From Escherichia coli (GTDB taxonomy: Bacteria; Pseudomonadota; Gammaproteobacteria; Enterobacterales; Enterobacteriaceae), in assembly GCF_003018255.1 (NCBI RefSeq), contig NZ_CP027440.1: a stretch of 64,000 nucleotides of DNA. One strand, 5' to 3'. The position numbers and the translations under genes were made by a program. The notes under the pieces were generated by a model, which was not told where the DNA came from, did no database searches, and saw only the letters and a program-made list of their open reading frames with translations. Positions 3,868 through 28,361 of this stretch are shown piece after piece (positions within the stretch are counted from its first letter, which is position 1; every line of letters starts with the position of its first letter).

Positions 3868-4236
3868 TATAGGCCCTGGATGTGGGATTTTTTTATCCTG
3901 TTAGCGACCTTGACGAGTACCAAAAAGCGCGAAGTTCAACTATTGTTCTGTGGTGTTCTGTTGCGTGTTGACGGCAAAATTTTGCTGGCGTAACATGCGC
4001 GCACGATCACTCTAAGAGGACATTCGCCTTGGACACACCCAGTAGATACTGGCTCACTATCCTGTCATCCAGGATCAACTCCTAAGGCTATCCCTTTTTG
4101 CTGATAGCCTTAGCGGTTGTCAGCGACCTCAATTTTTCCCGTCGCGCTGAGTCAGGCTGTTTAATGGTCTGAAACCCAATTTGTTTCTGTGTGCCCACCG
4201 AACTGTCCGATATTTTAAGCATTGGGAGTCCCGGTC

Positions 4237-5187
4237 ATGCTGAGCGCATTTCAACTGGAAAATAACCGACTGACCCGGCTGGAAGTCGAAGAGTCACAAC
4301 CCCTTGTAAATGCAGTATGGATTGATCTTGTCGAACCGGACGACGACGAGCGACTGCGCGTACAATCTGAACTTGGTCAGAGCCTGGCAACCCGCCCGGA
4401 ACTGGAAGACATCGAAGCATCGGCACGTTTCTTTGAAGACGATGACGGCCTGCATATTCACTCCTTCTTCTTCTTTGAAGATGCGGAAGATCACGCCGGT
4501 AACTCTACTGTGGCATTTACCATCCGTGATGGTCGTCTGTTTACTCTGCGTGAGCGTGAACTGCCTGCATTCCGTCTGTATCGTATGCGCGCCCGTAGCC
4601 AGTCAATGGTGGACGGTAACGCCTACGAGCTGCTGTTGGATCTGTTCGAAACCAAAATCGAACAGTTGGCGGATGAAATTGAAAACATCTACAGCGATCT
4701 GGAGCAGTTGAGCCGGGTGATTATGGAAGGGCATCAGGGCGATGAGTACGACGAGGCGCTCTCCACGCTGGCGGAACTGGAAGATATCGGCTGGAAAGTT
4801 CGCCTGTGTCTGATGGATACCCAGCGTGCGCTCAACTTCCTGGTACGTAAAGCACGCTTACCGGGTGGGCAACTGGAGCAGGCGCGTGAAATCCTGCGAG
4901 ATATCGAATCCCTGCTGCCGCATAACGAATCCCTGTTCCAGAAGGTGAACTTCCTGATGCAGGCGGCGATGGGCTTTATCAATATCGAGCAGAACCGCAT
5001 CATCAAAATCTTCTCGGTGGTATCCGTGGTGTTCCTGCCACCGACGCTGGTCGCTTCCAGCTACGGGATGAACTTTGAGTTTATGCCGGAACTGAAGTGG
5101 AGCTTCGGCTACCCAGGCGCGATTATCTTTATGATCCTCGCGGGCCTGGCACCGTATCTGTACTTTAAGCGGAAGAACTGGTTGTAA
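4237..5187 (+). CDS. corA: Magnesium/cobalt transport protein CorA
   Basis: C-terminal two TM helices with YGMNF motif and KRKNWL tail; start set at the internal Met ([10 protein letters not shown]) giving 316 aa as in K-12; the ORF track start at 4222 is probably an upstream extension. Confidence 0.95.
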
Positions 5188-16520: not shown

Positions 16521-18782
16521 ATGACAATTCTTAATCACACCCTCGGTTTCCCTCGCGTTGGCCTGCGTCGCGAGCTGAAAAAAGCGCAAGAGAGTTATTG
16601 GGCGGGGAACTCCACGCGTGAAGAACTGCTGGCTGTTGGGCGTGAATTACGTGCCCGTCACTGGGATCAACAAAAGCAGGCGGGTATCGACCTGCTGCCG
16701 GTGGGCGATTTTGCCTGGTACGATCATGTACTGACCACCAGTCTGCTGCTGGGTAACGTTCCGCCACGTCATCAGAACAAAGATGGTTCGGTAGATATCG
16801 ACACCCTGTTCCGTATTGGTCGTGGACGTGCACCGACTGGCGAACCTGCGGCGGCAGCGGAAATGACCAAATGGTTTAACACCAACTATCACTACATGGT
16901 GCCGGAGTTCGTTAAAGGCCAACAGTTCAAACTGACCTGGACGCAGCTGCTGGAGGAAGTGGACGAGGCGCTGGCGCTGGGCCACAAGGTCAAGCCCGTG
17001 CTGCTGGGGCCGGTTACCTACCTGTGGCTGGGTAAAGTGAAAGGTGAACAGTTTGATCGCCTGAGCCTGCTGAACGACATTCTGCCGGTTTATCAGCAAG
17101 TGTTGGCAGAACTGGCAAAACGCGGCATTGAGTGGGTACAGATCGACGAACCAGCGCTGGTACTGGAACTACCGCAGGCGTGGCTGGACGCATACAAACC
17201 CGCTTACGACGCGCTCCAGGGCCAGGTGAAACTGCTGCTGACTACCTATTTTGAAGGCGTAACGCCAAATCTCGACACGATTACTGCGCTGCCTGTTCAG
17301 GGGCTGCATGTGGACCTTGTACATGGTAAAGATGACGTTGCTGAACTGCACAAGCGTCTGCCTTCTGACTGGCTACTGTCTGCGGGTCTGATCAATGGTC
17401 GTAACGTCTGGCGCGCCGATCTTACCGAGAAATATGCGCAAATTAAGGACATTGTCGGCAAACGCGATTTGTGGGTGGCATCTTCCTGCTCGTTGCTGCA
17501 CAGCCCCATCGACCTGAGCGTGGAAACGCGTCTTGATGCAGAAGTGAAAAGCTGGTTTGCCTTCGCCCTACAAAAATGCCATGAACTGGCACTGCTGCGC
17601 GATGCGCTGAACAGTGGTGATACGGCGGCTCTGGCAGAATGGAGCGCTCCGATTCAGGCGCGTCGTCACTCTACCCGTGTCCATAATCCGGCGGTAGAAA
17701 AGCGTCTTGCAGCCATTACCGCCCAGGACAGTCAGCGTGCGAATGTCTATGAAGTGCGTGCTGAAGCCCAGCGTGCGCGTTTTAAACTGCCCGCGTGGCC
17801 GACTACCACGATTGGTTCCTTCCCGCAAACCACGGAAATTCGTACACTGCGTCTGGATTTCAAAAAGGGTAATCTCGACGCCAACAACTACCGCACGGGC
17901 ATTGCGGAACATATCAAGCAGGCCATTGTCGAGCAGGAACGTTTGGGACTGGATGTGCTGGTACATGGCGAGGCCGAGCGTAATGACATGGTGGAATACT
18001 TTGGCGAGCATCTGGATGGCTTTGTCTTTACGCAAAACGGTTGGGTACAGAGCTACGGTTCCCGCTGCGTGAAGCCACCGATTGTCATTGGTGACGTTAG
18101 CCGCCCGGCACCAATTACCGTGGAGTGGGCGAAATATGCACAATCGCTGACCGACAAACCGGTGAAAGGGATGCTGACGGGGCCGGTAACCATACTCTGC
18201 TGGTCATTCCCGCGTGAAGATGTCAGCCGTGAAACCATCGCCAAACAAATTGCGCTGGCGCTGCGTGATGAAGTGGCGGACCTGGAAGCCGCTGGAATTG
18301 GCATCATCCAGATTGATGAACCGGCACTGCGCGAAGGTTTACCGCTGCGTCGCAGCGACTGGGATGCCTATCTCCAGTGGGGCGTGGAGGCTTTCCGTAT
18401 CAACGCCGCCGTGGCGAAAGATGACACACAAATCCACACTCACATGTGTTACTGCGAGTTCAACGACATCATGGATTCGATTGCGGCGCTGGACGCAGAC
18501 GTCATCACCATCGAAACCTCGCGTTCCGACATGGAGTTGCTGGAGTCGTTTGAAGAGTTTGATTATCCAAATGAAATTGGTCCAGGCGTCTATGACATTC
18601 ACTCGCCAAACGTACCGAGCGTGGAATGGATTGAAGCCCTGCTGAAGAAAGCGGCAAAACGCATTCCGGCAGAGCGTCTGTGGGTAAACCCGGACTGTGG
18701 CCTGAAAACGCGCGGCTGGCCAGAAACCCGCGCGGCACTGGCGAACATGGTGCAGGCGGCGCAGAATTTGCGTCGGGGATGA
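16521..18782 (+). CDS. metE: Cobalamin-independent methionine synthase
   Basis: 753 aa; duplicated UroD-like barrel, C-terminal zinc-binding His/Cys/Glu region (HMCYCEF...); divergent from metR. Confidence 0.97.
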
Positions 18783-18821
18783 TGAGTATTAACGAGTCAT
18801 TGTAAATTGCAGTACGATAAT

Positions 18822-18847
18822 GGCTTCCAGTACTGGAAGCCATTTTG
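18822..18847 (+). terminator. Rho-independent terminator downstream of metE (possibly bidirectional)
   Basis: Inverted repeat ggcttccag/ctggaagcc followed by attttgc. Confidence 0.6.
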
Positions 18848-18950
18848 CATGAGTGCCAGATTGAAGCAGATCTTCAGGAGTAGAAATAACCGAATCGTTT
18901 TTTTCGCAAAACACAGTTTTGAGTGATTCCGTTCAGTAATCAACGCTACG

Positions 18951-19211
18951 TTATTTATTCTCACGTTGCACGAGATTGTATCCCTTTTCACTAACGTGGT
19001 AGTGAGGCATAGACTTATGCCCGCTATCCTCAATAATAACCAAACCTTCGTTAGCTAATTTGTTAACAATATTAACAATATTACCGAATCCTGGTATTTG
19101 CCTTATGGATAGTGTGCGATCGAGATTCATCCAGTTCCAGTTTATATCTTTCTCAGTCATAACGTTCAGCACGTTAAGTTCATTTTTAGTGATCACGATA
19201 TTCTGTACCAA
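18951..19211 (-). CDS. Candidate immunity protein, paralog 2 (distal copy)
   Basis: 86 aa; clearly paralogous to the 19271..19528 ORF (shared NVL.VM.EKDI.W.WM.LDRTL.IR.IPGFGN..NIV.KL...GLV); AT-rich; downstream of the Hcp-fusion gene. Confidence 0.6.
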   Translation of the reverse strand: MVQNIVITKNELNVLNVMTEKDINWNWMNLDRTLSIRQIPGFGNIVNIVNKLANEGLVIIEDSGHKSMPHYHVSEKGYNLVQRENK

Positions 19212-19270
19212 AATTGATGAGTATCTTATTGAAAGATCACAATGTAAATCATGCTCCTGTAATGGCTGGA

Positions 19271-19528
19271 TCAGAAGAGGTTGTCTTGTTGTTCTTTGAT
19301 AAGATTCAATCCATATTGAGAAACTCTGTAGCGTGGTTTAGAGTTGCCCTCACCATTTACGATATCAACCAACCCATGATTAACCAGCTTTGTTACGATA
19401 TTCGCTACGTTGCCAAATCCTGGAATATTTCGTATAGCTAAAGTACGATCCAGCACCATCCAGCTCCAGTCAATATCTTTCTCAGCCATAACTTTCAGCA
19501 CGTTAAATTCAACTATCGTAATCGTCAT
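19271..19528 (-). CDS. Candidate immunity protein, paralog 1 (proximal copy)
   Basis: 85 aa; start codon overlaps stop of the Hcp-fusion gene by 4 bp (ATGA at 19525-19528), i.e. translationally coupled; paralog of the 18951..19211 ORF. Confidence 0.65.
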   Translation of the reverse strand: MTITIVEFNVLKVMAEKDIDWSWMVLDRTLAIRNIPGFGNVANIVTKLVNHGLVDIVNGEGNSKPRYRVSQYGLNLIKEQQDNLF

Positions 19529-20658
19529 TTTTTTGCATCCGGATGAAATAAGTCAGTATCTTTAATTTTAAAGTCTTCTAGAGTTGCAGTATGTACATTA
19601 TTCCATAATTCATATCCATCTAAACCTTTCGGTTCACCTGTTTCCCATCCTAAATTACAATAACGCTGATACTCGCGACATTCATGAGTATAGTAGTTCA
19701 GATCGTATTTTTCAGGAAGCAATTCTTTATTTGCTATTTTCTTTAGCCTTGAAATCATTACATCATTAGCTGGATCATGATCAAATCTGGAGATATGCTT
19801 TTCAACAATAGCGATACCTTCCCTGTTGATTGTTACGCCATCTATCGTCAGGTTTTCAATTGGACCACCGGCAAGGTCGGGATTAAATGGTCTTCCTGAT
19901 ACTGCTCCTCTGGCTCCGAAATGCTCAAGTGATTCCAAATCAGGGAATCTCATTCTTCCCAGAACAACTCCAGCAACTATTGAAGCACCAGCGATGAGTA
20001 ACCCTTTGTTATCCATAACTTGATCGTAACCAGCAGGTGCATCTCCTCCCAACTTGTTTGCTGTTTCCCTGAATCCTTCGATATTCCCATTGTATATGCC
20101 GCCAGCAGCAAGCAGTCTGCCAACCGCTTTACTATTGAGTGTTTTGAGGCCATTATCATCTTTAGTTTTTGGCCGTGGTATAAACAGACGGTTGTAGTTA
20201 TCGGGAAATGCCAAATAACTAAATTCAGTATTAGCAATCAGATGCCTGGAGAGTATATATTCATAACTGGCAGTGATGGTTTCTGTATCCAGATTGTTCT
20301 CAGTAAACAGGTGATTGATTGCTGATAAGAGCGCGCCGCGGAGTTGAATGTTGTAATATTTCTCCCATCGACCAAATCTATTGATCCGATAGAAGTCAAA
20401 CTCCATGAACAACTGCTCGTTATTGTTAATAGCGTTAATAAGTAACGGGGAGCTTTTGTCAATCAACTTACAGAAACTAAGGCCATGTAATTGTGACCCT
20501 TTGCCTGTATTCGTAATACTATTAGATAGCGAGAACGCGAAGATTTCATCTTCATGGCCAATCTGCCAGCGATTACCTATTGATGCGCTCGTTCCGCAAC
20601 GAGAGGAAATACATCCTTGTTGTTCTCCGGTTATGGTCAGGTAAATAATATCACTCAT
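19525..20658 (-). CDS. Hcp (T6SS tube protein) domain fused to C-terminal extension of unknown function: candidate Hcp-ET type effector
   Basis: 377 aa; first ~165 aa resemble enterobacterial Hcp from memory (YLTITGEQQGCISSRCGTSASIGNRWQIGHEDEIFAF...KLIDKSSPLLINAI...EFDFYRI); ~210 aa C-terminal extension with GxxxG-rich hydrophobic segment and His/Glu/Tyr-rich tail (YYTHECREYQRY); AT-rich. Confidence 0.75.
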   Translation of the reverse strand: MSDIIYLTITGEQQGCISSRCGTSASIGNRWQIGHEDEIFAFSLSNSITNTGKGSQLHGLSFCKLIDKSSPLLINAINNNEQLFMEFDFYRINRFGRWEKYYNIQLRGALLSAINHLFTENNLDTETITASYEYILSRHLIANTEFSYLAFPDNYNRLFIPRPKTKDDNGLKTLNSKAVGRLLAAGGIYNGNIEGFRETANKLGGDAPAGYDQVMDNKGLLIAGASIVAGVVLGRMRFPDLESLEHFGARGAVSGRPFNPDLAGGPIENLTIDGVTINREGIAIVEKHISRFDHDPANDVMISRLKKIANKELLPEKYDLNYYTHECREYQRYCNLGWETGEPKGLDGYELWNNVHTATLEDFKIKDTDLFHPDAKK

Positions 20659-21049
20659 CCTTGAAAAACCTTTTGTTAATTCTTTTGTGAAAGAAAAATA
20701 GTATTGTTATTTTTTACCTTTATTTACGCCCAAAAGGGATGAACTAAAATGTGAAAAACAAAATGTTTCACTTTAATATCTTTTTATCAGGAAGGTCTGA
20801 GATAATTTATAATTAATGTGAATGTGTTGATAATAATTAATGTTTGTTTGAGAATGGGAGTTGATGGTAAATCTCTAAGGTGTCTGCCAGTGAAGAGACT
20901 CATTTATGACTATGACTTGCCGACTTTCTTAAGGTCAAATAGCGGAGTCGTGCTCTCCAATCAATTCATACTGATTATTTTTTGGGGGACAGAGATGGCA
21001 GCAAAATGCACTCGTTCACTCACCATCTCAAATATAGACTAAGAGGAAA
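20659..21049 (-). promoter_or_regulatory. AT-rich upstream/promoter region of the Hcp-fusion operon
   Basis: About 390 bp strongly AT-rich non-coding DNA upstream of the Hcp-fusion start; no precise -35/-10 assigned. Confidence 0.4.
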
Positions 21050-21862
21050 CTAATTCCGCTTCCCACCATACTGCTTAAACCACTCCAGCATACGCTGCCA
21101 GCCATCTTTCGCAGATTCGGCATGATAGCTCGGGCGATAATCGGCGTTGAATGCATGCCCGGCATCCGGGTAGACGATAATCTCTGCTTTCGCATTAGCA
21201 GCCCGCAGCGCCTGGCGCATGGTTTCAACGCTCTCCTGCGGAATGCTGTTATCCTGACCACCATATAAGCCGAGAACCGGCGCGTTAAGATCGGTTGCGA
21301 TATCAACAGGTTGTTTCGGTGAATTCAGCGACTTGTCGCCCGTCAGTTTGCCGTACCACGCCACTGCGGCTTTTAGCTGTGGATTATGCGCGGCATACAG
21401 CCAGGTGATACGTCCACCCCAGCAGAATCCGGTGATCATTAAACGATGAACATCGCCGCCGTTGCGGGAAGCCCAACTGGCGACATGATCGAGATCGGCC
21501 AGCACCTGCGAGTCAGGCACTTTTGCTACCAGACCGCTAAGCAACGTGGGGATATCGGCAAAATCATTCGGATCGCCTTCGCGGAAGTAAAGTTCAGGTG
21601 CAATAGCCAGATACCCCTCCAGCGCCAGACGGCGACAAATGTCGCGGATATGTTCATGCACGCCAAAAATTTCCTGCACTACAATGACCACTGGCAGTGG
21701 GCCATCGCTTTGCTTTGGTCTGGCATGGTAAGCAGGCATGTTATCCCCTTGTGAAGGGATAGAGGTGAAGCCCGCCACAATCGCGTCGTCCGGAGTCTGA
21801 ACGATGGTCGAAGCGAGAGGCGATGCCGCAGGTGCAAATCCAGATTGTTGTGTTGTTGCCAT
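21050..21862 (-). CDS. ysgA: Dienelactone hydrolase family protein YsgA
   Basis: alpha/beta hydrolase with dienelactone hydrolase-like sequence (GFCWGG nucleophile region); start chosen at MATTQQSGF; ORF track start at 21928 is a longer alternative. Confidence 0.85.
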   Translation of the reverse strand: MATTQQSGFAPAASPLASTIVQTPDDAIVAGFTSIPSQGDNMPAYHARPKQSDGPLPVVIVVQEIFGVHEHIRDICRRLALEGYLAIAPELYFREGDPNDFADIPTLLSGLVAKVPDSQVLADLDHVASWASRNGGDVHRLMITGFCWGGRITWLYAAHNPQLKAAVAWYGKLTGDKSLNSPKQPVDIATDLNAPVLGLYGGQDNSIPQESVETMRQALRAANAKAEIIVYPDAGHAFNADYRPSYHAESAKDGWQRMLEWFKQYGGKRN

Positions 21863-22921: not shown

Positions 22922-24412
22922 TTACTGACGCCGTAAACGCATTATTTTGCGGATTATTGGCGTCAGTAGCGTAAAGGCTGCCAGAGTTAGCAATGCCAGA
23001 GTGATCGGTCGGGTATACAGAAAGTCCAGTGAACCCCCTGAAAGCGACAGCGCACGGCGAAAATTACTTTCTGCCATCGGGCCCATAATCAATGCCAGCA
23101 CTACGGGTGATGCCGGATATCCTCCTTTCTGCATGAAATAGCCCACCACGCCTGCAATCAGCATAATGCCAACATCAAACAGGCTATTGTTCAACGCATA
23201 AGTCCCGACCACACAAAGTGCGAGGATCATCGGTGTGAGAATATTGCCGGGGATCTTCACCACGTTACCGATGACTTTCAAAGAGAGCAGTCCAAGAACT
23301 AGCAGCATGAAGTAACAAAAGATCATGCCGACAAACAGTGTATAAACCATATCGCCGTGGTCGGTAAACATCAGCGGGCCTGGTTGCATTCCCTGTAACG
23401 TTAACGCGCCCAGCATGATGGCGGTTACCGCATCGCCAGGGATCCCCAGCGTCAGCATAGGTAACAATGCGCCACCGGTGCAGCCATTCGCGCCTGCCTC
23501 ACAGGAGGCCACAGCTTTAATTTCACCCTTACCAAAGTTTTCTGGTGTCTTACTGAAACGACGAGTTTCGTTATAGGCAACAAAAGCTGCAATATCCGCC
23601 CCCGCACCGGGGATCATGCCGATAAAAACCCCTAATCCTGATGAGCGCAAAATGGTTAATGCAATGCGGCGTAGTGTTTGCCAGGGCAGTAACAGACTGC
23701 CGATAGCCACCTTCGCCCCCTGACGAATTTGCTGGTTTTGCTCCATAGAGCGGAATGCTTCTGAAGCAGCAAATAAACCAATCATCACCGGGATAAATGG
23801 CACATTCATCAGCTCCACAAATCCACCTGTAAACCGTGGAAAACCGCCCATTGGATCAAGGCCTATCGTTGCGATCAGCAATCCGCCAACCCCGGCAATC
23901 AGCCCTTTAATCAGCGACTCACCGGAAATACTGGCAATAATACTCAGTCCGAAGGTTGCCAGGGCGAAGGACTCCGAGGCACTAAATTTCAGCGCCCAAC
24001 TGGCAAGTACCGGAGAGAGAAACATCAGCACGATAATGCTGAGCGTTCCGCCACTAAAGGAAGAGAACGTGGCGGCACTCAATGCCAGCCCTGCTTTTCC
24101 CTGTTTCGTCAGCTCATAACCATCAATAGCGGTGGCTGCGGCGGCAGGCGTTCCGGGAATTTTGAGCAAAATTGCGGTGATAGAACCACCGTAGACGCCA
24201 CCAAAAAAGACGCCGCAAATCATCAACAAGCCAGAAACAGGCTCCATGCCGTAGGTGAAAGGCAGCAAAATCGCCACACCCATGGTCGCTGTCAGACCAG
24301 GCAAAGCGCCAATCACAATACCCAGCATCACCCCAAAAGTGGCAAACAGCAGCGCCTGAGGATTATTGAGTAATGTCGAAAAACCCTGAGTTAAAAGTTC
24401 ACTTTCAAACAT
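22922..24412 (-). CDS. Tripartite tricarboxylate transporter large permease, TctA family
   Basis: 496 aa polytopic membrane protein with internal duplication typical of TctA; follows tctB/tctC-like genes. Confidence 0.8.
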   Translation of the reverse strand: MFESELLTQGFSTLLNNPQALLFATFGVMLGIVIGALPGLTATMGVAILLPFTYGMEPVSGLLMICGVFFGGVYGGSITAILLKIPGTPAAAATAIDGYELTKQGKAGLALSAATFSSFSGGTLSIIVLMFLSPVLASWALKFSASESFALATFGLSIIASISGESLIKGLIAGVGGLLIATIGLDPMGGFPRFTGGFVELMNVPFIPVMIGLFAASEAFRSMEQNQQIRQGAKVAIGSLLLPWQTLRRIALTILRSSGLGVFIGMIPGAGADIAAFVAYNETRRFSKTPENFGKGEIKAVASCEAGANGCTGGALLPMLTLGIPGDAVTAIMLGALTLQGMQPGPLMFTDHGDMVYTLFVGMIFCYFMLLVLGLLSLKVIGNVVKIPGNILTPMILALCVVGTYALNNSLFDVGIMLIAGVVGYFMQKGGYPASPVVLALIMGPMAESNFRRALSLSGGSLDFLYTRPITLALLTLAAFTLLTPIIRKIMRLRRQ

Positions 24413-24424
24413 TGCTGGCCCCTG

Positions 24425-24934
24425 TTATTCGAAAAATGTGCCGACAGGCAATGGCACCTGTAACGCTTCGACAAACAGCAACCAGAGGATTGCCGTTAAC
24501 AGCAGCGCAATACCCGGTGTGAGTACCCATCGCCTGTAGCCCATCAACGTCATAATGACGATGAGGAAAACAGGAGTAGTAATGAGATAACCGCAGTAGC
24601 TCATCGCCACAATATAAAACGCGGTTGCCGCAATTCCTGTTGCTGTTTTCCTGAATGCCGGTTTTTCCTGTGCGTTGGCGCAAGAGGCTGGTTTTGCCTG
24701 CAAAAGATCGCGTATCACCAGCAAGACAGCGAGCACAATCAGGGCACAGGCATAGAAGGTAGGGAAGGCACTTGCACCGGGATCCGTTTCAATGGCAGTT
24801 GCTGGAAAATCAGCGGCATTAATCATCACCGCGCCAGCAACCACACAAAGTAACAGCGCCACCACCATCGTTGATGAAAGGCGCTTGCGGTGCGGTACGG
24901 CGAGTTGAGCAACAGACTGTTTTGTGTTCATCAA
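24425..24934 (-). CDS. Tripartite tricarboxylate transporter small subunit, TctB family
   Basis: 169 aa with about four hydrophobic helices, located between TctC-like and TctA-like genes. Confidence 0.7.
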   Translation of the reverse strand: MMNTKQSVAQLAVPHRKRLSSTMVVALLLCVVAGAVMINAADFPATAIETDPGASAFPTFYACALIVLAVLLVIRDLLQAKPASCANAQEKPAFRKTATGIAATAFYIVAMSYCGYLITTPVFLIVIMTLMGYRRWVLTPGIALLLTAILWLLFVEALQVPLPVGTFFE

Positions 24935-24947
24935 CCGTACCTCAGGT

Positions 24948-25922
24948 TTATTTTTTCAGGCCCAGGCGAGTCAGCAACTCGTCAAAGTACTTTTCCTGTT
25001 CGCTGATTTGGGTCTGGAAGCTGGCAGCGTCAAGCCATGCATAGTTGAGATTCAACTTTTGCAGTGCATCCTGGAATGCAGGCTCTTCAGCCGTCTCTTT
25101 TGCTGCCTTTGCCAGAACATCCACCACATCCTGCGGCGTTTTTTGCGACACAATCAGGCCGCGCCAGGTGCCGATGGAGAGATCAACGCCTTTCTCTTTT
25201 AACGTCGGGACGTCAGGCATGGTTTTCATTCGCTCATCCGCCATCACTACCAGTGTCTTCAGCTTGCCGCCATTCACATGGTTGATAACTTCTCCTGGGC
25301 TTACGGAAACCGCTTCAATATGCCCGCCTAACAGGCCTGTAATGGCAGGGGCTGCGCCGTCATACGGGACATGAGAAAACTTTGTGCCCGTTTTGTCTTC
25401 CAGTGCAGCTGCCGCCAGATGCCAGATAGCTCCGGTGCCTGAGTTACCAATGCGTACTTTTCCGGGATTCGCTTTGGAGTAAGCCATAAATTCTTCATAG
25501 CTATTCCACGGCGCATCGGCACGGACTGTGATAGCAGCCGGATCCGCATTCAGACGGGCAATGGGTTTAAAGTCGCTGGTTTTAAAACGCACCATTCCGA
25601 GGCTGGGAAGGGTGGTCAGTTCAACCGTGCCTAAACCAATTTTGTAACCGTTAGGGCGGGCAGCGGCGATTTCACTCAGGCCGATAGCACCGCCTCCGCC
25701 AGGTTTATTGATAACCCCGATGCTGACGGGTAAATGGTTTTTGGCGGCATCAGCAAAGGCACGGGCAACCAGATCCGTACCGCCTCCGGCAGCGTAGGGA
25801 ACGACTAACTCGATCTGTTTGGTTGGGTAGGAGGCAGCCTGTACAGGCGCAATGCTGAGGGCAGCGCCTGCAAGAAGTACCATTGCAGCCATTTTTTTCG
25901 GTAAGGTAAGATGTTTTATCAT
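24948..25922 (-). CDS. Tripartite tricarboxylate transporter periplasmic substrate-binding protein, TctC/Bug family
   Basis: 324 aa with signal peptide; Bug-family signature near N-terminus (YPTKQIELVVPYAAGGGTDLVAR). Confidence 0.8.
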   Translation of the reverse strand: MIKHLTLPKKMAAMVLLAGAALSIAPVQAASYPTKQIELVVPYAAGGGTDLVARAFADAAKNHLPVSIGVINKPGGGGAIGLSEIAAARPNGYKIGLGTVELTTLPSLGMVRFKTSDFKPIARLNADPAAITVRADAPWNSYEEFMAYSKANPGKVRIGNSGTGAIWHLAAAALEDKTGTKFSHVPYDGAAPAITGLLGGHIEAVSVSPGEVINHVNGGKLKTLVVMADERMKTMPDVPTLKEKGVDLSIGTWRGLIVSQKTPQDVVDVLAKAAKETAEEPAFQDALQKLNLNYAWLDAASFQTQISEQEKYFDELLTRLGLKK

Positions 25923-25946
25923 TGCTTTTATATCCTTATTTATCAG

Positions 25947-26576
25947 TTAGTTGCTATTTAAATTGTTCCATGCGTTCATAAACAGTACTGCATTTTCATA
26001 GACTTGCTCTGGCGTCATGCCGGGGCGATATAGCGCAGAACCGAGGCCAAAGCCGTTTGCGCCGTGGCTCAGATAACGCGCCATGGTTTCCGGTGTGATA
26101 CCGCCAACCGGTAACATCGGAACGGATTGTGGAATAACCGCACGCCAGGCTTTGGTAACTTCTGGCGTAATTTGTTCAGCCGGGAACAGCTTGATGGCAT
26201 TAGCACCATGTTCAATGGCAGCAAAGGCTTCGGTGGGCGTGGCGACGCCAGGCGCACAATACATACCCAGCGCACGGGCGCGACGGATCACCGCAGTATC
26301 GCAATGCGGCATCACGATAATCTGGCCCCCAGCCTCTTTAACCGCAACCACCTGCTCTACCGAAAGCACAGTTCCGGCTCCGACCAGGCAGTCCTTAGGC
26401 AGGGCGTCGCGCAGTAAACTGATACTTTGCAACGCCTCCGGCGAGTTCATAGGAATCTCAATCAGGCGGAATCCGGCGGCGTACAGTTTTTCACCGATGG
26501 CGACAATCTCATCCGGTTTCACGCCGCGTAAAATGGCGACTAACCCGGTTTTTTGCAAAAGTGTATTAAATGGCAT
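25947..26576 (-). CDS. 2-dehydro-3-deoxy-6-phosphogalactonate / KDPG aldolase family protein (DgoA-like)
   Basis: Aligns by eye with E. coli DgoA (LVAILRGVKPDE...IEIPMNSP...GAGTVL...GGITPE); start chosen at MPFNTLLQ (209 aa); ORF track start at 26651 is an upstream extension. Confidence 0.8.
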   Translation of the reverse strand: MPFNTLLQKTGLVAILRGVKPDEIVAIGEKLYAAGFRLIEIPMNSPEALQSISLLRDALPKDCLVGAGTVLSVEQVVAVKEAGGQIIVMPHCDTAVIRRARALGMYCAPGVATPTEAFAAIEHGANAIKLFPAEQITPEVTKAWRAVIPQSVPMLPVGGITPETMARYLSHGANGFGLGSALYRPGMTPEQVYENAVLFMNAWNNLNSN

Positions 26577-27570
26577 GGGTACATTCCCTGGCGTTGGTGG
26601 ACAGTAACCCGGCAGCGTGGGCGATTCGCCATAATCCATGTTCAGTGGCATTAGGAATGGCGTGTATCTGTCTGTCGGGAAAAACGTGGCTGAATGCTTG
26701 TGAATAGCGGCTGTTCAGATTTGCGCTACCGATTAAGGCGATCGGTGTTGTGGCGGGTAAATCACGTAGCAAACTGGATGCCAGACCACATAATTCATGG
26801 CCTATCAGTAATCCGGAAAGGTAATCCCCCTGCGAGGACGACGTAAGATTACTGGTCAGCAGGCGCGAACGGGTCGAAAACAGCGTCGATAATAATCCGG
26901 TCTGATGATGCTCTTGTGCTGCTGTCAGCCCGTGGGTGAAGGCATCCCAGTGCGGTTCATCTCCAGGATGCATGGTGGCACCGAGAATCGAATGGCGGGA
27001 TAAAACATCAAATAACTCGCCCGTCATAAAGGTTCGGAAATCGGTAATGGTGTTGTTTTCAACTACTGCCCATTTCGCATGTGTGCCGGGTAAGCCTATC
27101 AGCACTGGCATACCCTGATGGATCGCGTTTTGCAGGGCCGGTTCCATCGAGATAGCACCGAAGATTTGTGTCTCTTCGCCACGCATCACTTCGGGCATTT
27201 CACCTTCTTTAATCACGCCAGGAATGATGTGCAGCATTGTCTGCTGCTGGTGGATAACAGGCGTCAACTGCTTCGCCAGACCCTCGAGAGTGACCGGGCA
27301 AGGTAAATAAGCTGCTGATTGCCACCCTTGCGCACTGCCGAGCATGCCGCAAGCCAGTACCGGGCATGGGGTTTGTGCCAGCCAGTCGCCGCAGACACGT
27401 AAAAACGTATCGTGGAAAGCGTCCTCACGTGTTGCTGCCTGGGAGGGTAATTTCATGATCCCCCAGGGGAATTCACGTTTTTCTTGTGGATTTGGTGATT
27501 CGCCAAAACGCCATGCCCGAAGCGATGACGTTCCCCAGTCCAGGGCAATAAATGAGGGTGCTCCCGGCAT
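26566..27570 (-). CDS. 2-dehydro-3-deoxygalactonokinase family protein (DgoK-like)
   Basis: 334 aa; N-terminal IALDWGTSSLRAW and internal VMRGEETQIFG and PGTHAKW motifs resemble DgoK as recalled; 3' end overlaps aldolase start by 11 nt. Confidence 0.8.
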   Translation of the reverse strand: MPGAPSFIALDWGTSSLRAWRFGESPNPQEKREFPWGIMKLPSQAATREDAFHDTFLRVCGDWLAQTPCPVLACGMLGSAQGWQSAAYLPCPVTLEGLAKQLTPVIHQQQTMLHIIPGVIKEGEMPEVMRGEETQIFGAISMEPALQNAIHQGMPVLIGLPGTHAKWAVVENNTITDFRTFMTGELFDVLSRHSILGATMHPGDEPHWDAFTHGLTAAQEHHQTGLLSTLFSTRSRLLTSNLTSSSQGDYLSGLLIGHELCGLASSLLRDLPATTPIALIGSANLNSRYSQAFSHVFPDRQIHAIPNATEHGLWRIAHAAGLLSTNARECTHAI

Positions 27571-27593
27571 TAGTCGTTTCCTTTAATCATGGT

Positions 27594-28361
27594 TTATTTA
27601 TCTTTGCGGACGTGCTTACCCCAGCCCAGTTCAGCGGATATCTCTTCTGCACAGGATTTGACGTAAGGTGCCAGTTCTTCCAGACGCGCCAGCGACATAT
27701 ACGTGGTGGTACTGGCGACAGAAATAGCCGCCACAATTTCATCCCGGGCGTTGTAAACCGGCGCTGCAACGCAACGGATAGTCGGCTCGTTCTCTTCCAG
27801 ATCAAAAGCAAAACCACTGGCGGCATAACGACGCATGTTCTGAATAAATGCGCCCAGTTTTGTTTCATCACCACAGGTCTTAAACAGCGTGCGCCACTCT
27901 TCTTCTGTTCGGTTGAGGATCAATGCCTTGCCGATGCCGGTGATTGCCAGTGGCATGCGATGGCCTGGGCGTGAGCGCATTTCCAGCCCGCGCTGACTGT
28001 TGATCTTCTCCAGATACAGCACTTCGTCGCCTTCAACGATCCCCAGATGCACGGTGTCCAGGGTGTAACGGGCAAGGCGTTGCAAAACGGGCTGGGCAAT
28101 TTCGTACAGTGAGGTGCTTTCCAGTGCTCTGGCACCGAATTCGATCAGTTTGGCACCCAGTTGGTAGCCCTGCGTTGGGACATGGCGCAGGTAGCGTTGT
28201 TCCACCAGAACGGTGACTAAACGATGGGTTGTGCTCCGGGTCGTGCCGGTGAACTCGCCGATACTTTTTAGGTCATGGCAGCCGTTATAAACAGCATTAA
28301 GAACCGCCAGTCCACGTAATAACGTTTGTGCGCCTGCGGTGGTTGAAGAGGTTTCTGCCAT
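27594..28361 (-). CDS. IclR-family transcriptional regulator
   Basis: Start chosen at MAETSSTTAG (ATG 28361, RBS-like aggag upstream) giving about 255 aa; N-terminal wHTH plus C-terminal IclR effector-binding domain; 23 bp upstream of the kinase gene. Confidence 0.8.
   Translation of the reverse strand: MAETSSTTAGAQTLLRGLAVLNAVYNGCHDLKSIGEFTGTTRSTTHRLVTVLVEQRYLRHVPTQGYQLGAKLIEFGARALESTSLYEIAQPVLQRLARYTLDTVHLGIVEGDEVLYLEKINSQRGLEMRSRPGHRMPLAITGIGKALILNRTEEEWRTLFKTCGDETKLGAFIQNMRRYAASGFAFDLEENEPTIRCVAAPVYNARDEIVAAISVASTTTYMSLARLEELAPYVKSCAEEISAELGWGKHVRKDK

Follow-up and report, generated by a model that had tools for sequence, protein, structure and literature searches.

An orphan Hcp fusion of Escherichia coli with a putative all-alpha toxin domain and two candidate winged-helix immunity genes

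[quoted passage not shown] According to its sequence relationships, the C-terminal part (residues 238-377) is a putative toxin from a large all-alpha family that lacks annotation. The toxin fold has no solved match. The type of weapon is already known, and the locus is not a wholly new system.

Table 1. Features of the metE-ysgA island in the analyzed stretch (aa, amino acids).
Feature	Positions	Strand	Description
Accessory island	18779..21058	.	low GC (~38%); between metE and ysgA; contains the gene of the Hcp-toxin fusion and putative immunity genes 1 and 2
Putative immunity gene 2	18951..19196	-	81 aa (RefSeq); paralogue of gene 1
Putative immunity gene 1	19271..19528	-	85 aa, winged-helix; predicted cognate to the toxin from ATGA overlap and synteny
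Hcp-ET gene	19525..20658	-	377 aa; specialised Hcp/TssD with C-terminal putative toxin
Putative toxin domain	19528..19947	-	residues 238-377 (140 aa); all-alpha, acidic (pI 5.2), no Pfam/PDB match
Invariant H325-E326-x-x-E329 motif	19672..19686	-	helix 3; with H288, D319 and H356 the predicted metal/active site
Hydrophobic Gly/Ala-rich segment GLLIAGASIVAGVVLG	19957..20004	-	residues 219-234; junction of conserved module and variable toxin
Conserved linker ("pre-toxin" region)	19948..20217	-	residues 148-237; basic (pI 9.8), predicted helical with low confidence
Hcp (TssD) tube domain	20218..20658	-	residues 1-147; TIGR03344, PF05638 and PDB Hcp matches

The N-terminal domain was identified as Hcp/TssD by TIGR03344 (residues 1-147, E-value 3.8e-36, 124.5 bits at a cut-off of 58.9), by PF05638 (T6SS_HCP; residues 6-135, E-value 1.5e-13) and by Hcp chains of the PDB, of which 6a2v was the best match (E-value 2.4e-14). 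In the predicted full-length model this region is a beta-barrel. The original prediction had placed an Hcp-like domain at approximately residues 1-165; its nature could be confirmed, and its end was moved to residue 147, where the profile stops. T6SS_HCP is the only Pfam domain of the protein. Beyond residue ~147 no match was found in Pfam-A (E-value ≤10), NCBIfam, PADLOC or the PDB sequences, so that the profile comparison proposed earlier gave no characterised domain for the extension. The identical protein is present in NCBI solely under the name "type VI secretion system tube protein Hcp/TssD".

The extension beyond residue 147 comprises 230 aa, and positions 19525-20160 correspond to residues 167-377 and the stop codon. 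It is conserved in 542 close proteins and in 544 representative clusters at 50% identity, hence the 377-aa ORF is not a chance ORF. Hcp-ETs are recognised by an N-terminal Hcp/TssD domain, an extension of more than 60-120 aa with a toxin, and a downstream immunity gene. All of these were found here, the toxin as a candidate judged by its sequence. A signal peptide was not visible in the 377-aa sequence, which fits a cytoplasmic target.

The C-terminal extension after the Hcp domain is real, and the three motifs quoted for it were found where they had been placed (RPKTKDDNG at residues 162-170, YYTHECREYQRYCNLGW at residues 322-338, and GLLIAGASIVAGVVLG). The original prediction had treated its last ~200 aa as one domain. 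Approximately 90 aa turned out to be a linker that also occurs in Hcp-ETs with a toxin of another class and in proteins without Hcp, which leaves the last 140 aa for the toxin. Residues 1-228 are 74% identical to YhhZ of E. coli K-12, and the homology ends at residue 228, within GLLIAGASIVAGVVLG. On the nucleotide level, positions 20038-20156 match the yhhZ-type tssD gene with 79% identity (~3,000 E. coli genomes). The linker was also found in front of other C-termini (P0211, P0212, P0256 and P0259) and behind non-Hcp N-termini (a 348-aa class and a DUF8093 class). The 348-aa carriers without Hcp are encoded among housekeeping genes, and no T6SS gene was found at a distance of up to 4 kb.

Helices of the linker are modeled at residues 176-184, 193-203, 207-216 and 220-232 with a pLDDT of 24-66. 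The full-length model has a pLDDT of 59.8, which is too poor for judging the behavior of the linker or the hydrophobic helix. The highest Kyte-Doolittle value of the protein in a 19-residue window was determined for residues 220-238 (1.69). The GxxxG-rich stretch GLLIAGASIVAGVVLG, formerly counted as toxin, lies at the end of the YhhZ homology; from its position it is assigned to the linker, outside the putative toxin, and is predicted to mark a recombination junction.

For the analysis of the toxin domain, 73 sequences with less than 75% mutual identity were aligned. Six columns are invariant (H51, D82, H88, E89, E92 and H119 of the alignment, corresponding to H288, D319, H325, E326, E329 and H356). 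R256, R291, R304, Y323, R332, Y333, W352 and E361 are nearly invariant. The His/Glu/Tyr/Cys-rich patch YYTHECREYQRYCNLGW, which had been singled out before, was thus borne out for H325, E326 and E329, which are invariant, and for Y323, which is nearly so, but not for the cysteines. C327 and C334 are confined to an enterobacterial subclade, whereas most members carry L and R/K/S.

The model of the toxin domain is of high confidence and all-alpha. A fold search of the PDB with this model gave no structural neighbour, and in particular no nuclease, His-Me-finger, zincin or other hydrolase fold; a profile search of the PDB with the toxin alignment found nothing either. The suspicion of an unclassified fold agrees with this result. 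None of the Pfam domains HNH, DUF2235, Pyocin_S, Colicin-DNase, papain-like, Colicin_D, Colicin_E5, "Cytotoxic" (E3) or peptidase was matched by the toxin at an E-value of up to 10. The domain definition (residues 238-377 with H288/D319/HExxE/H356) together with the winged-helix partner provides a concrete construct for structural and activity work.

The toxin domain was found in 544 clusters at 50% identity and in 221 GTDB species representatives from several phyla. Dickeya, Neisseria, Vibrio and K. pneumoniae were not among the matches listed, which are the best 80 of the 221 loci. The domain also forms the C-terminus of Rhs/YD-repeat, PAAR and LysM proteins (PAAR proteins and S-type pyocins from AFDB50). 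Bacteriocins carrying it were identified in E. coli, Klebsiella, Salmonella, Serratia and Pseudomonas. On the E. coli plasmid pS19_141-d and on 5,783-bp Klebsiella plasmids, the bacteriocin gene is accompanied by a small immunity gene and a lysis gene. In the pS19_141-d bacteriocin, Pyocin_S (PF06958) ends at residue 597 and the toxin domain follows directly. A pyocin of the P. aeruginosa toxA locus carries the same toxin domain as the Hcp fusion; its N-terminus is presumably of the pyocin S2 type.

The Salmonella plasmid bacteriocin matches the colicin D structure (PDB 5znm, E-value 5e-92) over residues 276-577. It resembles colicin D- and klebicin-type bacteriocins in its receptor and translocation regions, and differs from colicin D in that the tRNase domain is swapped for a toxin domain of the Hcp-fusion type, which has no similarity to Colicin_D. 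In RefSeq and UniProt, some carriers are named "colicin-like bacteriocin tRNase domain-containing protein", "Colicin-D" or "klebicin D activity protein", and truncated copies are listed by NCBI as "HNH endonuclease" or "colicin". The names "tRNase", "colicin D" and "HNH endonuclease" were rejected as a guide to function, as they go back either to regions outside the toxin or to names that were propagated unreliably.

Taken by its distribution, the domain is a phylum-spanning family of putative polymorphic toxins, which also arms colicin- and pyocin-type bacteriocins. A constant N-terminal module, a diverging C-terminus and predicted cognate and orphan immunity genes, as described for polymorphic toxins, were all found. 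Between E. coli alleles the identity is 93% for the Hcp domain, 95% for the linker and 81% for the toxin. Proteobacteria, cyanobacteria, planctomycetes and actinobacteria are among its carriers. The family has no Pfam model, solved structure or defined mechanism, and in the literature no experiment on any member was found under a connectable name. The original prediction had seen in the domain the most likely genuinely novel element of the window. This singular status does not hold, as the family is large and spans phyla, and a Pfam-less non-HNH DNase class, to which it very probably belongs, is already recognised in surveys (PMC5536347, S1 Table; PMC9990079).

Two small genes lie downstream of the toxin gene. 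The ATG of immunity gene 1 overlaps the TGA of the toxin gene as ATGA. Among 79 loci of different species, with cyanobacteria, planctomycetes and actinobacteria represented, 48 have a homologue of this gene directly 3' of the toxin domain. Immunity protein 2 would be 86 aa long if started from an upstream TTG at position 19211, and it is 58% identical to immunity protein 1. A much closer relative is the product of the single immunity gene beside the divergent toxin allele of strain OkiPb01680, with 86% identity on the protein and 93.5% on the nucleotide level. The toxin and the adjoining small gene diverge in step between alleles. From gene order and allele matching, immunity gene 1 is the predicted cognate partner of the toxin, and immunity gene 2 is probably an orphan immunity gene against the sister toxin allele. 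The earlier suggestion that small downstream genes act in immunity is consistent with the ATGA overlap and synteny, the paralogy and the allele match.

A profile of the immunity family matches PadR/MarR winged-helix structures of the PDB with E-values of 1.3e-5 to 1e-3, and family members match the Pfam domains PadR, HTH_45 and DUF4364 at E-values of up to 1e-3. Transmembrane segments were not found in the immunity proteins. Their RefSeq family name is "MarR family transcriptional regulator". Defining the toxin and immunity pair would mend the annotation of many genomes, in which immunity proteins are now filed as MarR regulators. In the bacteriocin carriers, a different small protein of 85-90 aa occupies the position of the immunity gene.

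The GC content of the island is 0.35-0.43 compared to ~0.55 in the flanks. In an alignment of the site with strain 55989, metE is next to ysgA and the island is missing; the flanks are 96-99% identical to those of 55989 up to position 18778 and from position 21059 onwards. The 2.3-kb island was found in 857 of 5,426 complete E. coli genomes, and every copy is chromosomal. Thus, approximately one in six complete genomes carries a locus which is annotated only as a tube protein and two hypothetical proteins. The metE-ysgA locus is a compact natural case in which toxin and immunity alleles turn over while their place in the chromosome stays fixed. A scan of the island for promoters and terminators yielded consensus-level matches and nothing better.

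Hcp-ETs carry an N-terminal Hcp domain, a polymorphic C-terminal toxin and downstream immunity genes, which are sometimes duplicated, and they occur at orphan sites outside the T6SS cluster (PMC6730261, PMC6099711). The protein described here resembles the Hcp-ETs of Enterobacteriaceae in the fusion of Hcp to a C-terminal toxin, the duplicated immunity genes and the orphan location. The closest relative in K-12 is the pair YhhZ/YrhA, which shares the Hcp domain and the linker as well as an immunity gene directly downstream. The C-terminal ~160 residues of YhhZ are wholly different and have weak HNH/Col-Pyo_DNase matches, its immunity protein YrhA belongs to another family, and its locus is yhhY-yrhB instead of metE-ysgA.

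Ma et al., in Virulence in 2017 (8:1189), reportedly divided more than 350 Hcp-ET sequences into the classes ET1 (HNH-DNase), ET2 (DUF2235/Tle1), ET3 ("Pyocin S3"), ET4 (Colicin-DNase) and ET5 (papain-like). Unlike these, the 377-aa protein matches no Pfam toxin domain by which one of the five classes is defined, at an E-value of up to 10. The protein is thus outside these classes as far as Pfam defines them, as had been supposed. An identity with Hcp-ET1 was rejected, since the site is empty in strain 55989 and the HNH-type YhhZ shares only Hcp and linker.

Most likely, the toxin domain cuts nucleic acid. Nuclease bacteriocins comprise five cytotoxic classes, and only the non-HNH DNase of pyocin S3 and its immunity protein are without Pfam models (PMC5536347, main text and S1 Table). 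In a further survey, pyocin S3 is entered as a DNase without a detectable domain (PMC9990079). By elimination among the five classes, the toxin domain is probably this "non-HNH (pyocin S3-type) DNase" class. Among the killing domains of nuclease bacteriocins, this is probably the last class without a known structure, and defining it would fill that gap. The nuclease assignment is in line with the observation that cytotoxic domains of nuclease bacteriocins are common to T6SS effectors and LysM/MIX proteins of Vibrio (Sharp et al., PMC5536347). In our reading of the same study, bacteriocins of the nuclease type generally carry Pyocin_S and the DPY motif (PMC5536347).

The likeness to the pyocin S3 class, drawn at family level and by elimination, consists of a killing domain after Pyocin_S and an adjacent small immunity gene, with no HNH motif, Pfam model or structure. 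The toxin family here is acidic, with a median pI of 5.4 and 84% of its members below 7. Pyocin S3 was reportedly described by Duport et al. in 1995. Its immunity protein has ~153 aa, in contrast to the 85-90 aa found for the immunity proteins of the bacteriocin members. CdiA-CT(3937-2) of D. dadantii is pyocin S3-like.

In the preferred explanation, the fusion protein would be built into the Hcp tube and delivered with it by a T6SS whose genes lie elsewhere in the genome. No T6SS genes were found within the window, i.e., the whole 64-kb stretch analyzed, so that we infer the delivery from the Hcp domain alone. The linker and the hydrophobic helix may aid the toxin in crossing the inner membrane, and the toxin would work as a metal-dependent nuclease inside the cytoplasm of the target cell. 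Inside the producer, immunity protein 1 would bind and block the toxin, and immunity protein 2 would guard against the sister allele circulating in E. coli.

The acidic toxin family and the near-neutral immunity proteins count against the preferred explanation, and the size of the S3 immunity protein counts against the link to pyocin S3. Colicin DNase/Im pairs show the reverse charge pattern, and an acidic pI is unexpected for a non-specific DNA-binding nuclease. A new all-alpha H/D/HExxE/H metalloenzyme of uncharacterised fold, which would hit a specific cytoplasmic target (e.g., one particular RNA, a protein or a nucleotide cofactor) instead of degrading DNA generically and would be blocked by a winged-helix immunity protein mislabelled as a MarR regulator in several phyla, is kept as a possible, clearly less favored reading.

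It is unlikely, though worth weighing, that the domain is a metal-dependent enzyme for a non-DNA cytoplasmic target, such as an HExxE peptidase-like metallohydrolase or a nucleotide/cofactor enzyme, and that the likeness to bacteriocins concerns the delivery context only. The charges mentioned above would suit such an enzyme, and the invariant H/D/HExxE/H residues, together with several conserved Arg and Tyr, are compatible with many metalloenzymes that act on phosphates or peptides; the fold search gave no nuclease fold. However, HExxE differs from the zincin motif HExxH in that the second His at +4 is absent, and no zincin or hydrolase fold was recovered. In addition, the bacteriocin toxin domain sits right after Pyocin_S, the place that Table 2 of Dingemans et al. 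[quoted passage not shown]

An RNase (tRNA or rRNA nuclease) instead of a DNase appears improbable. The toxin domain stands in for the tRNase domain in the colicin D-like Salmonella bacteriocin, some carriers bear tRNase or colicin D names, and acidity would be less odd in a specific RNase. But since the colicin D match covers only residues 276-577, before the toxin domain, these names derive from the non-toxic part. Moreover, Colicin_D, Colicin_E5 and the E3 "Cytotoxic" domain gave no Pfam match, although models exist for all three known bacteriocin RNase classes (PMC5536347, S1 Table).

A heavily diverged HNH/His-Me-finger DNase (Hcp-ET1 or the Hcp-ET4 colicin DNase) is very improbable. It is suggested by the NCBI names of the truncated copies and by the spacing H325 ... 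N353/N354 ... H356, which is loosely H...N...H-like. N353 and N354, however, vary across the family, and the confident all-alpha model has no beta-beta-alpha finger and no His-Me-finger fold match. HNH and Colicin-DNase were not matched even at an E-value of 10, whereas YhhZ is matched weakly, and the metE-ysgA site is empty in 55989, which is an Hcp-ET1 strain (bioRxiv 10.1101/2024.03.05.583533).

Killing by membrane insertion of the GxxxG-type hydrophobic helix (as a pore-former or disruptor) is hardly credible, as the value of 1.69 for residues 219-234 slightly exceeds the usual transmembrane threshold but the run has only 16 residues, the linker segment is common to the HNH-type Hcp-ET and would leave immunity that is specific to an allele unexplained, the immunity proteins have a predicted soluble winged-helix fold, and the catalytic-looking conserved residues are in the soluble C-terminal domain. 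Equally remote is the absence of any toxin system, with a structural or regulatory extension and ordinary MarR-type regulators as the RefSeq label has it, given that the same domain ends Rhs proteins and colicin-type bacteriocins with lysis genes, that the small gene abuts the toxin gene with a start/stop overlap and co-diverges with it between alleles, and that another small protein takes the same position in the bacteriocin carriers.

Other short toxins were compared as well. PT1 and PT7 are polymorphic-toxin DNases of novel fold, for which crystal structures of the complexes were reported; PT1 has 119 aa, the catalytic residues H44/H48 and an immunity protein of 122 aa (Nachmias et al., bioRxiv 10.1101/2021.10.19.465003). 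T6EC4 is an Hcp-fused Citrobacter toxin with a Tox-REase-5-like alpha/beta fold (Geller et al., 2024, PMC11148199). These toxins share with the one described here a short unannotated C-terminal domain, a His-based metal site (predicted here) and an adjacent small immunity gene. All three are toxic in the E. coli cytoplasm. An identity with PT1 or PT7 was rejected because they differ in fold and length, in the catalytic residues and in the size of the immunity protein, and because no PDB chain matches the toxin model. T6EC4 was rejected because of its alpha/beta fold, as opposed to all-alpha. Carocin S3 was discarded as a lead, being colicin D/carocin S2-like. LysM proteins were among the matches of the toxin family, as in the LysM/MIX statement of Sharp et al. 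(PMC5536347).

[quoted passage not shown] The motifs quoted in the original prediction were located at residues 162-170, 219-234 and 322-338, and the region under study (19525-20160) corresponds to residues 167-377. That this tail has no assignable domain was confirmed, since past residue ~147 no match was found in Pfam-A (even at E <= 10), NCBIfam, PADLOC or the PDB sequences. The protein shares its architecture with the Hcp-ET effectors but, as had been expected, fits none of their five described toxin classes. The proposal of an unclassified fold also held, as no PDB chain matches the model of the toxin domain. However, the ~200 aa do not form one domain, because residues 148-237 are conserved separately from the toxin, and the tail is not a singular novelty, as its toxin domain belongs to a large family.

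Features of the Hcp-fusion locus (coordinates refer to the window)
Feature	Coordinates	Strand	Size	Remarks
Hcp-fusion ORF	19525-20658	minus	377 codons	
Immunity gene 1	19271-19528	minus	85 aa	its ATG overlaps the toxin TGA (ATGA)
Immunity gene 2	18951-19196/19211	minus		58% identical to gene 1
Low-GC island	18779-21058		2.28 kb	between metE and ysgA; GC 0.35-0.43 (flanks ~0.55)

Residues 162-377 were searched against 1.84 billion representative proteins at E <= 1e-3, resulting in 544 matched clusters. Nearly all distant matches cover only query positions 84-216 (residues 245-377), located at their own C-termini, while a few cover only the linker (query 9-97) and then run into a different C-terminus. 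The Hcp-ET sister protein YhhZ of K-12 is 74% identical across residues 1-228, where the similarity ends; this comparison is the clearest evidence pointing to a two-part extension. The YhhZ tail shows weak Pfam matches to HNH and Col-Pyo_DNase, and YrhA, which belongs to a different immunity family, is encoded directly 3' of yhhZ. The linker DNA (20038-20156) matches the yhhZ-type gene with 79% in ~3000 genomes. Furthermore, the linker and toxin unit was found in proteins without Hcp, behind N-terminal domains of two kinds (348-aa class and DUF8093 class), in genera that include Pantoea, Lonsdalea, Cronobacter and Klebsiella. The split of the search results, the identity to YhhZ and the sharing with non-Hcp carriers argue that residues 148-237 are a conserved basic linker (pI 9.8). 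The hydrophobic Gly-rich segment 219-234 lies outside the toxin and is the junction between the conserved module and the variable toxin. The AlphaFold full-length model (pLDDT 59.8) was too uncertain beyond a "probably helical" linker.

In Lonsdalea and Pantoea (loci L009 and L010; 3347-4692), linker, toxin and immunity gene follow an uncharacterised N-terminal domain of ~140 aa. These carriers are 348-358 aa in length, with cbpA, cytochrome b561 and AHL synthase as neighbours; the surroundings are housekeeping, and the nearest 4 kb hold no T6SS gene.

The toxin family was aligned using 73 members with less than 75% mutual identity. H288, D319, H325, E326, E329 and H356 are invariant, and R256, R291, R304, Y323, R332, Y333, W352 and E361 nearly so. 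The two cysteines highlighted in the original prediction are confined to the enterobacterial branch of the family. From this alignment, AlphaFold2 built a five-helix model with high confidence (pLDDT 92.9, pTM 0.86), in which the conserved residues map to helices 1, 3 and 4. The toxin domain is thus confidently predicted to consist of alpha-helices only; its H/D/HExxE/H cluster is invariant, and Arg and Tyr residues are conserved as well.

Directly 3' of the toxin, 76 of the 79 loci retrieved carry a short ORF, usually of 77-91 aa (overall range roughly 60-160 aa). One BLAST family, which includes both window proteins, comprises 48 of these ORFs and extends to cyanobacteria, planctomycetes and one actinobacterium; a second family with the motif KGPNWKEP was found in 21 bacteriocin-type loci. 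The profile of the window immunity family matches PadR/MarR structures (E 1.3e-5 to 1e-3), and single members match Pfam PadR, HTH_45 and DUF4364, which identifies the family as a winged-helix domain. In RefSeq the family (P0405-P0517) is named "MarR family transcriptional regulator" in many genomes; this name is correct as to the fold, but the gene neighbourhood points to a function in immunity. No signal peptide is visible on the immunity proteins. The Hcp fusion, the modular junction at the linker end and the conserved toxin/immunity pair are shown by these results.

The divergent allele of strain OkiPb01680, which illustrates the evolution of the locus, shows nucleotide identities to the window of 93% (Hcp), 95% (linker) and 81% (toxin). 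Its single immunity gene is closer to gene 2 (86% protein, 93.5% nucleotide identity) than to gene 1 (only 62%), so that, judged from these identities, gene 1 is the cognate immunity gene of the window toxin; protection by gene 2 is most likely directed at the sister toxin. An allele-matched extra immunity gene is the usual pattern in polymorphic toxins.

Relatives of the toxin domain in AFDB50 are labelled as S-type pyocins, "pyosin/cloacin translocation domain", "colicin", PAAR and RHS. Long carriers comprise LysM proteins and Rhs/YD-repeat proteins, the latter reaching 5214 aa. In a GTDB scan with one genome per species, relatives were detected in 221 stretches from gamma-, beta- and alphaproteobacteria, many cyanobacteria, planctomycetes, Bacteroidota, Acidobacteriota and one actinobacterium. 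A tblastn search of plasmids revealed true colicin-type operons on E. coli pS19_141-d (6995 bp) and on 5783-bp Klebsiella ColE1-type plasmids, in which a ~750-780-aa bacteriocin with a C-terminal toxin domain is followed by an 87-90-aa gene and a lysis gene. In the E. coli bacteriocin, Pyocin_S (PF06958) ends at residue 597 and the toxin domain, serving as killing domain, follows directly. A pyocin of the P. aeruginosa toxA hot spot (L008, NZ_CP131792.1, 2303-6330), the N-terminus of which we take to be of the pyocin S2 type, also carries the toxin domain and comes with an immunity gene of 85 aa. Downstream (3') of it lie an orphan colicin-immunity gene, remnants of a pyocin S6 toxin and, still intact, the S6 immunity gene. 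The 847-kb record is classed as a plasmid yet carries toxA.

A Salmonella bacteriocin (L088, NZ_CP045061.1, 1300-3695) on a conjugative 271-kb plasmid matches the colicin D structure 5znm up to residue 577 (E 5e-92) and carries the toxin domain in place of the colicin D tRNase. Its RefSeq name, "colicin-like bacteriocin tRNase domain-containing protein", and "Colicin-D" names are misleading, because the likeness to colicin D ends before the swapped-in domain. Solved klebicin G (9hn1) matches in the central region only. In a Klebsiella plasmid of the 5783-bp type (L007, NZ_AP024178.1, 2670-5725), the bacteriocin with its own 87-aa immunity gene is accompanied by a second gene, whose product RefSeq names "bacteriocin immunity protein" and which by eye resembles Im proteins from DNase colicins; this looks like what remains of an exchange of toxin domains in an operon of the klebicin type. 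Microcoleus and related cyanobacteria (L034-L042; ~4000-4900 each) contain a toxin-antitoxin-like two-gene form of the module: a stand-alone ~136-aa toxin copy followed by a 160-aa protein, whose N-terminal half is the winged-helix immunity domain and whose C-terminal half resembles a HicB-type antitoxin by eye.

Five cytotoxic classes have been described for nuclease bacteriocins, and their domains also occur in T6SS effectors and LysM/MIX Vibrio proteins (Sharp et al., PMC5536347); our matches include LysM proteins too. Pfam models are missing solely for the "non-HNH DNase" of pyocin S3 and for the immunity protein that goes with it (PMC5536347 S1 Table), and in a 2023 review pyocin S3 is given as a DNase in which no domain can be detected (PMC9990079). 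The toxin family is abundant in pyocins, is placed after Pyocin_S and matches none of the four Pfam-modelled classes; by elimination, it is therefore probably the non-HNH DNase of the pyocin S3 type of bacteriocin, long known but uncharacterised in structure. We give this assignment by elimination an even chance. One caveat is the size of the pyocin S3 immunity protein (~153 aa). Another is that the toxin family is acidic (median pI 5.4) and its immunity proteins are near neutral, opposite to the charge pattern of colicin DNase/Im pairs.

It is very likely that this is a toxin-immunity module delivered by a T6SS. Linker and hydrophobic helix may help in crossing the inner membrane, by pure analogy to CdiA-CT entry domains and the transmembrane helices of PAAR effectors. 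The target would be cytoplasmic and the chemistry metal-dependent. The activity would most likely be that of a nuclease, which we favour with moderate confidence; the combined explanation (Hcp-delivered toxin with immunity, metal-dependent nuclease, pyocin S3 class) is considered reasonably probable. An activity other than DNA degradation would make the toxin of greater interest.

Among the known systems, PT1 and PT7 were rejected because their size and catalytic residues are different; crystal structures of their complexes were reported, and the toxin model has no match among the PDB chains. Hcp-ET1 was excluded as an HNH class (PF01844; PMC9990079) whose carrier 55989 lacks the island, and T6EC4 because its toxin is Tox-REase-5-like. 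The Hcp fusion carries a toxin of a new type, the sixth, of the known Hcp-ET/polymorphic-toxin kind. The analysis yields exact limits of the domains, residues that may be catalytic, a winged-helix immunity family together with the recognition that it is mis-annotated, and the arrangement of alleles and orphan immunity at the E. coli locus.

In strain 55989, metE adjoins ysgA, and the flanks align up to 18778 and resume at 21059. The island was identified in 857 of 5426 complete E. coli genomes, chromosomal every time, and is annotated as "tssD" and two hypothetical proteins. Some genomes have an IS1 or IS3 insertion in the island or a frameshift in the gene. Such damaged islands were often seen in other strains (genome matches H4-H20, locus L005; proteins P0002, P0105, P0386, P0396), and frameshifted copies leave C-terminal ORFs of 229, 180 or 163 aa. 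These fragments are labelled "HNH endonuclease" or "colicin" in NCBI/UniProt, names that no model run supports.

The window contains no T6SS genes elsewhere, so the Hcp fusion is an orphan; its neighbours are housekeeping genes and one second accessory block (~22922-27600) directly after udp. In 55989 this block is absent and rmuC follows udp. It encodes a tripartite tricarboxylate transporter (permease, TctB-like and Bug-family binding protein), 2-dehydro-3-deoxy-6-phosphogalactonate aldolase, 2-dehydro-3-deoxygalactonokinase and an IclR regulator.
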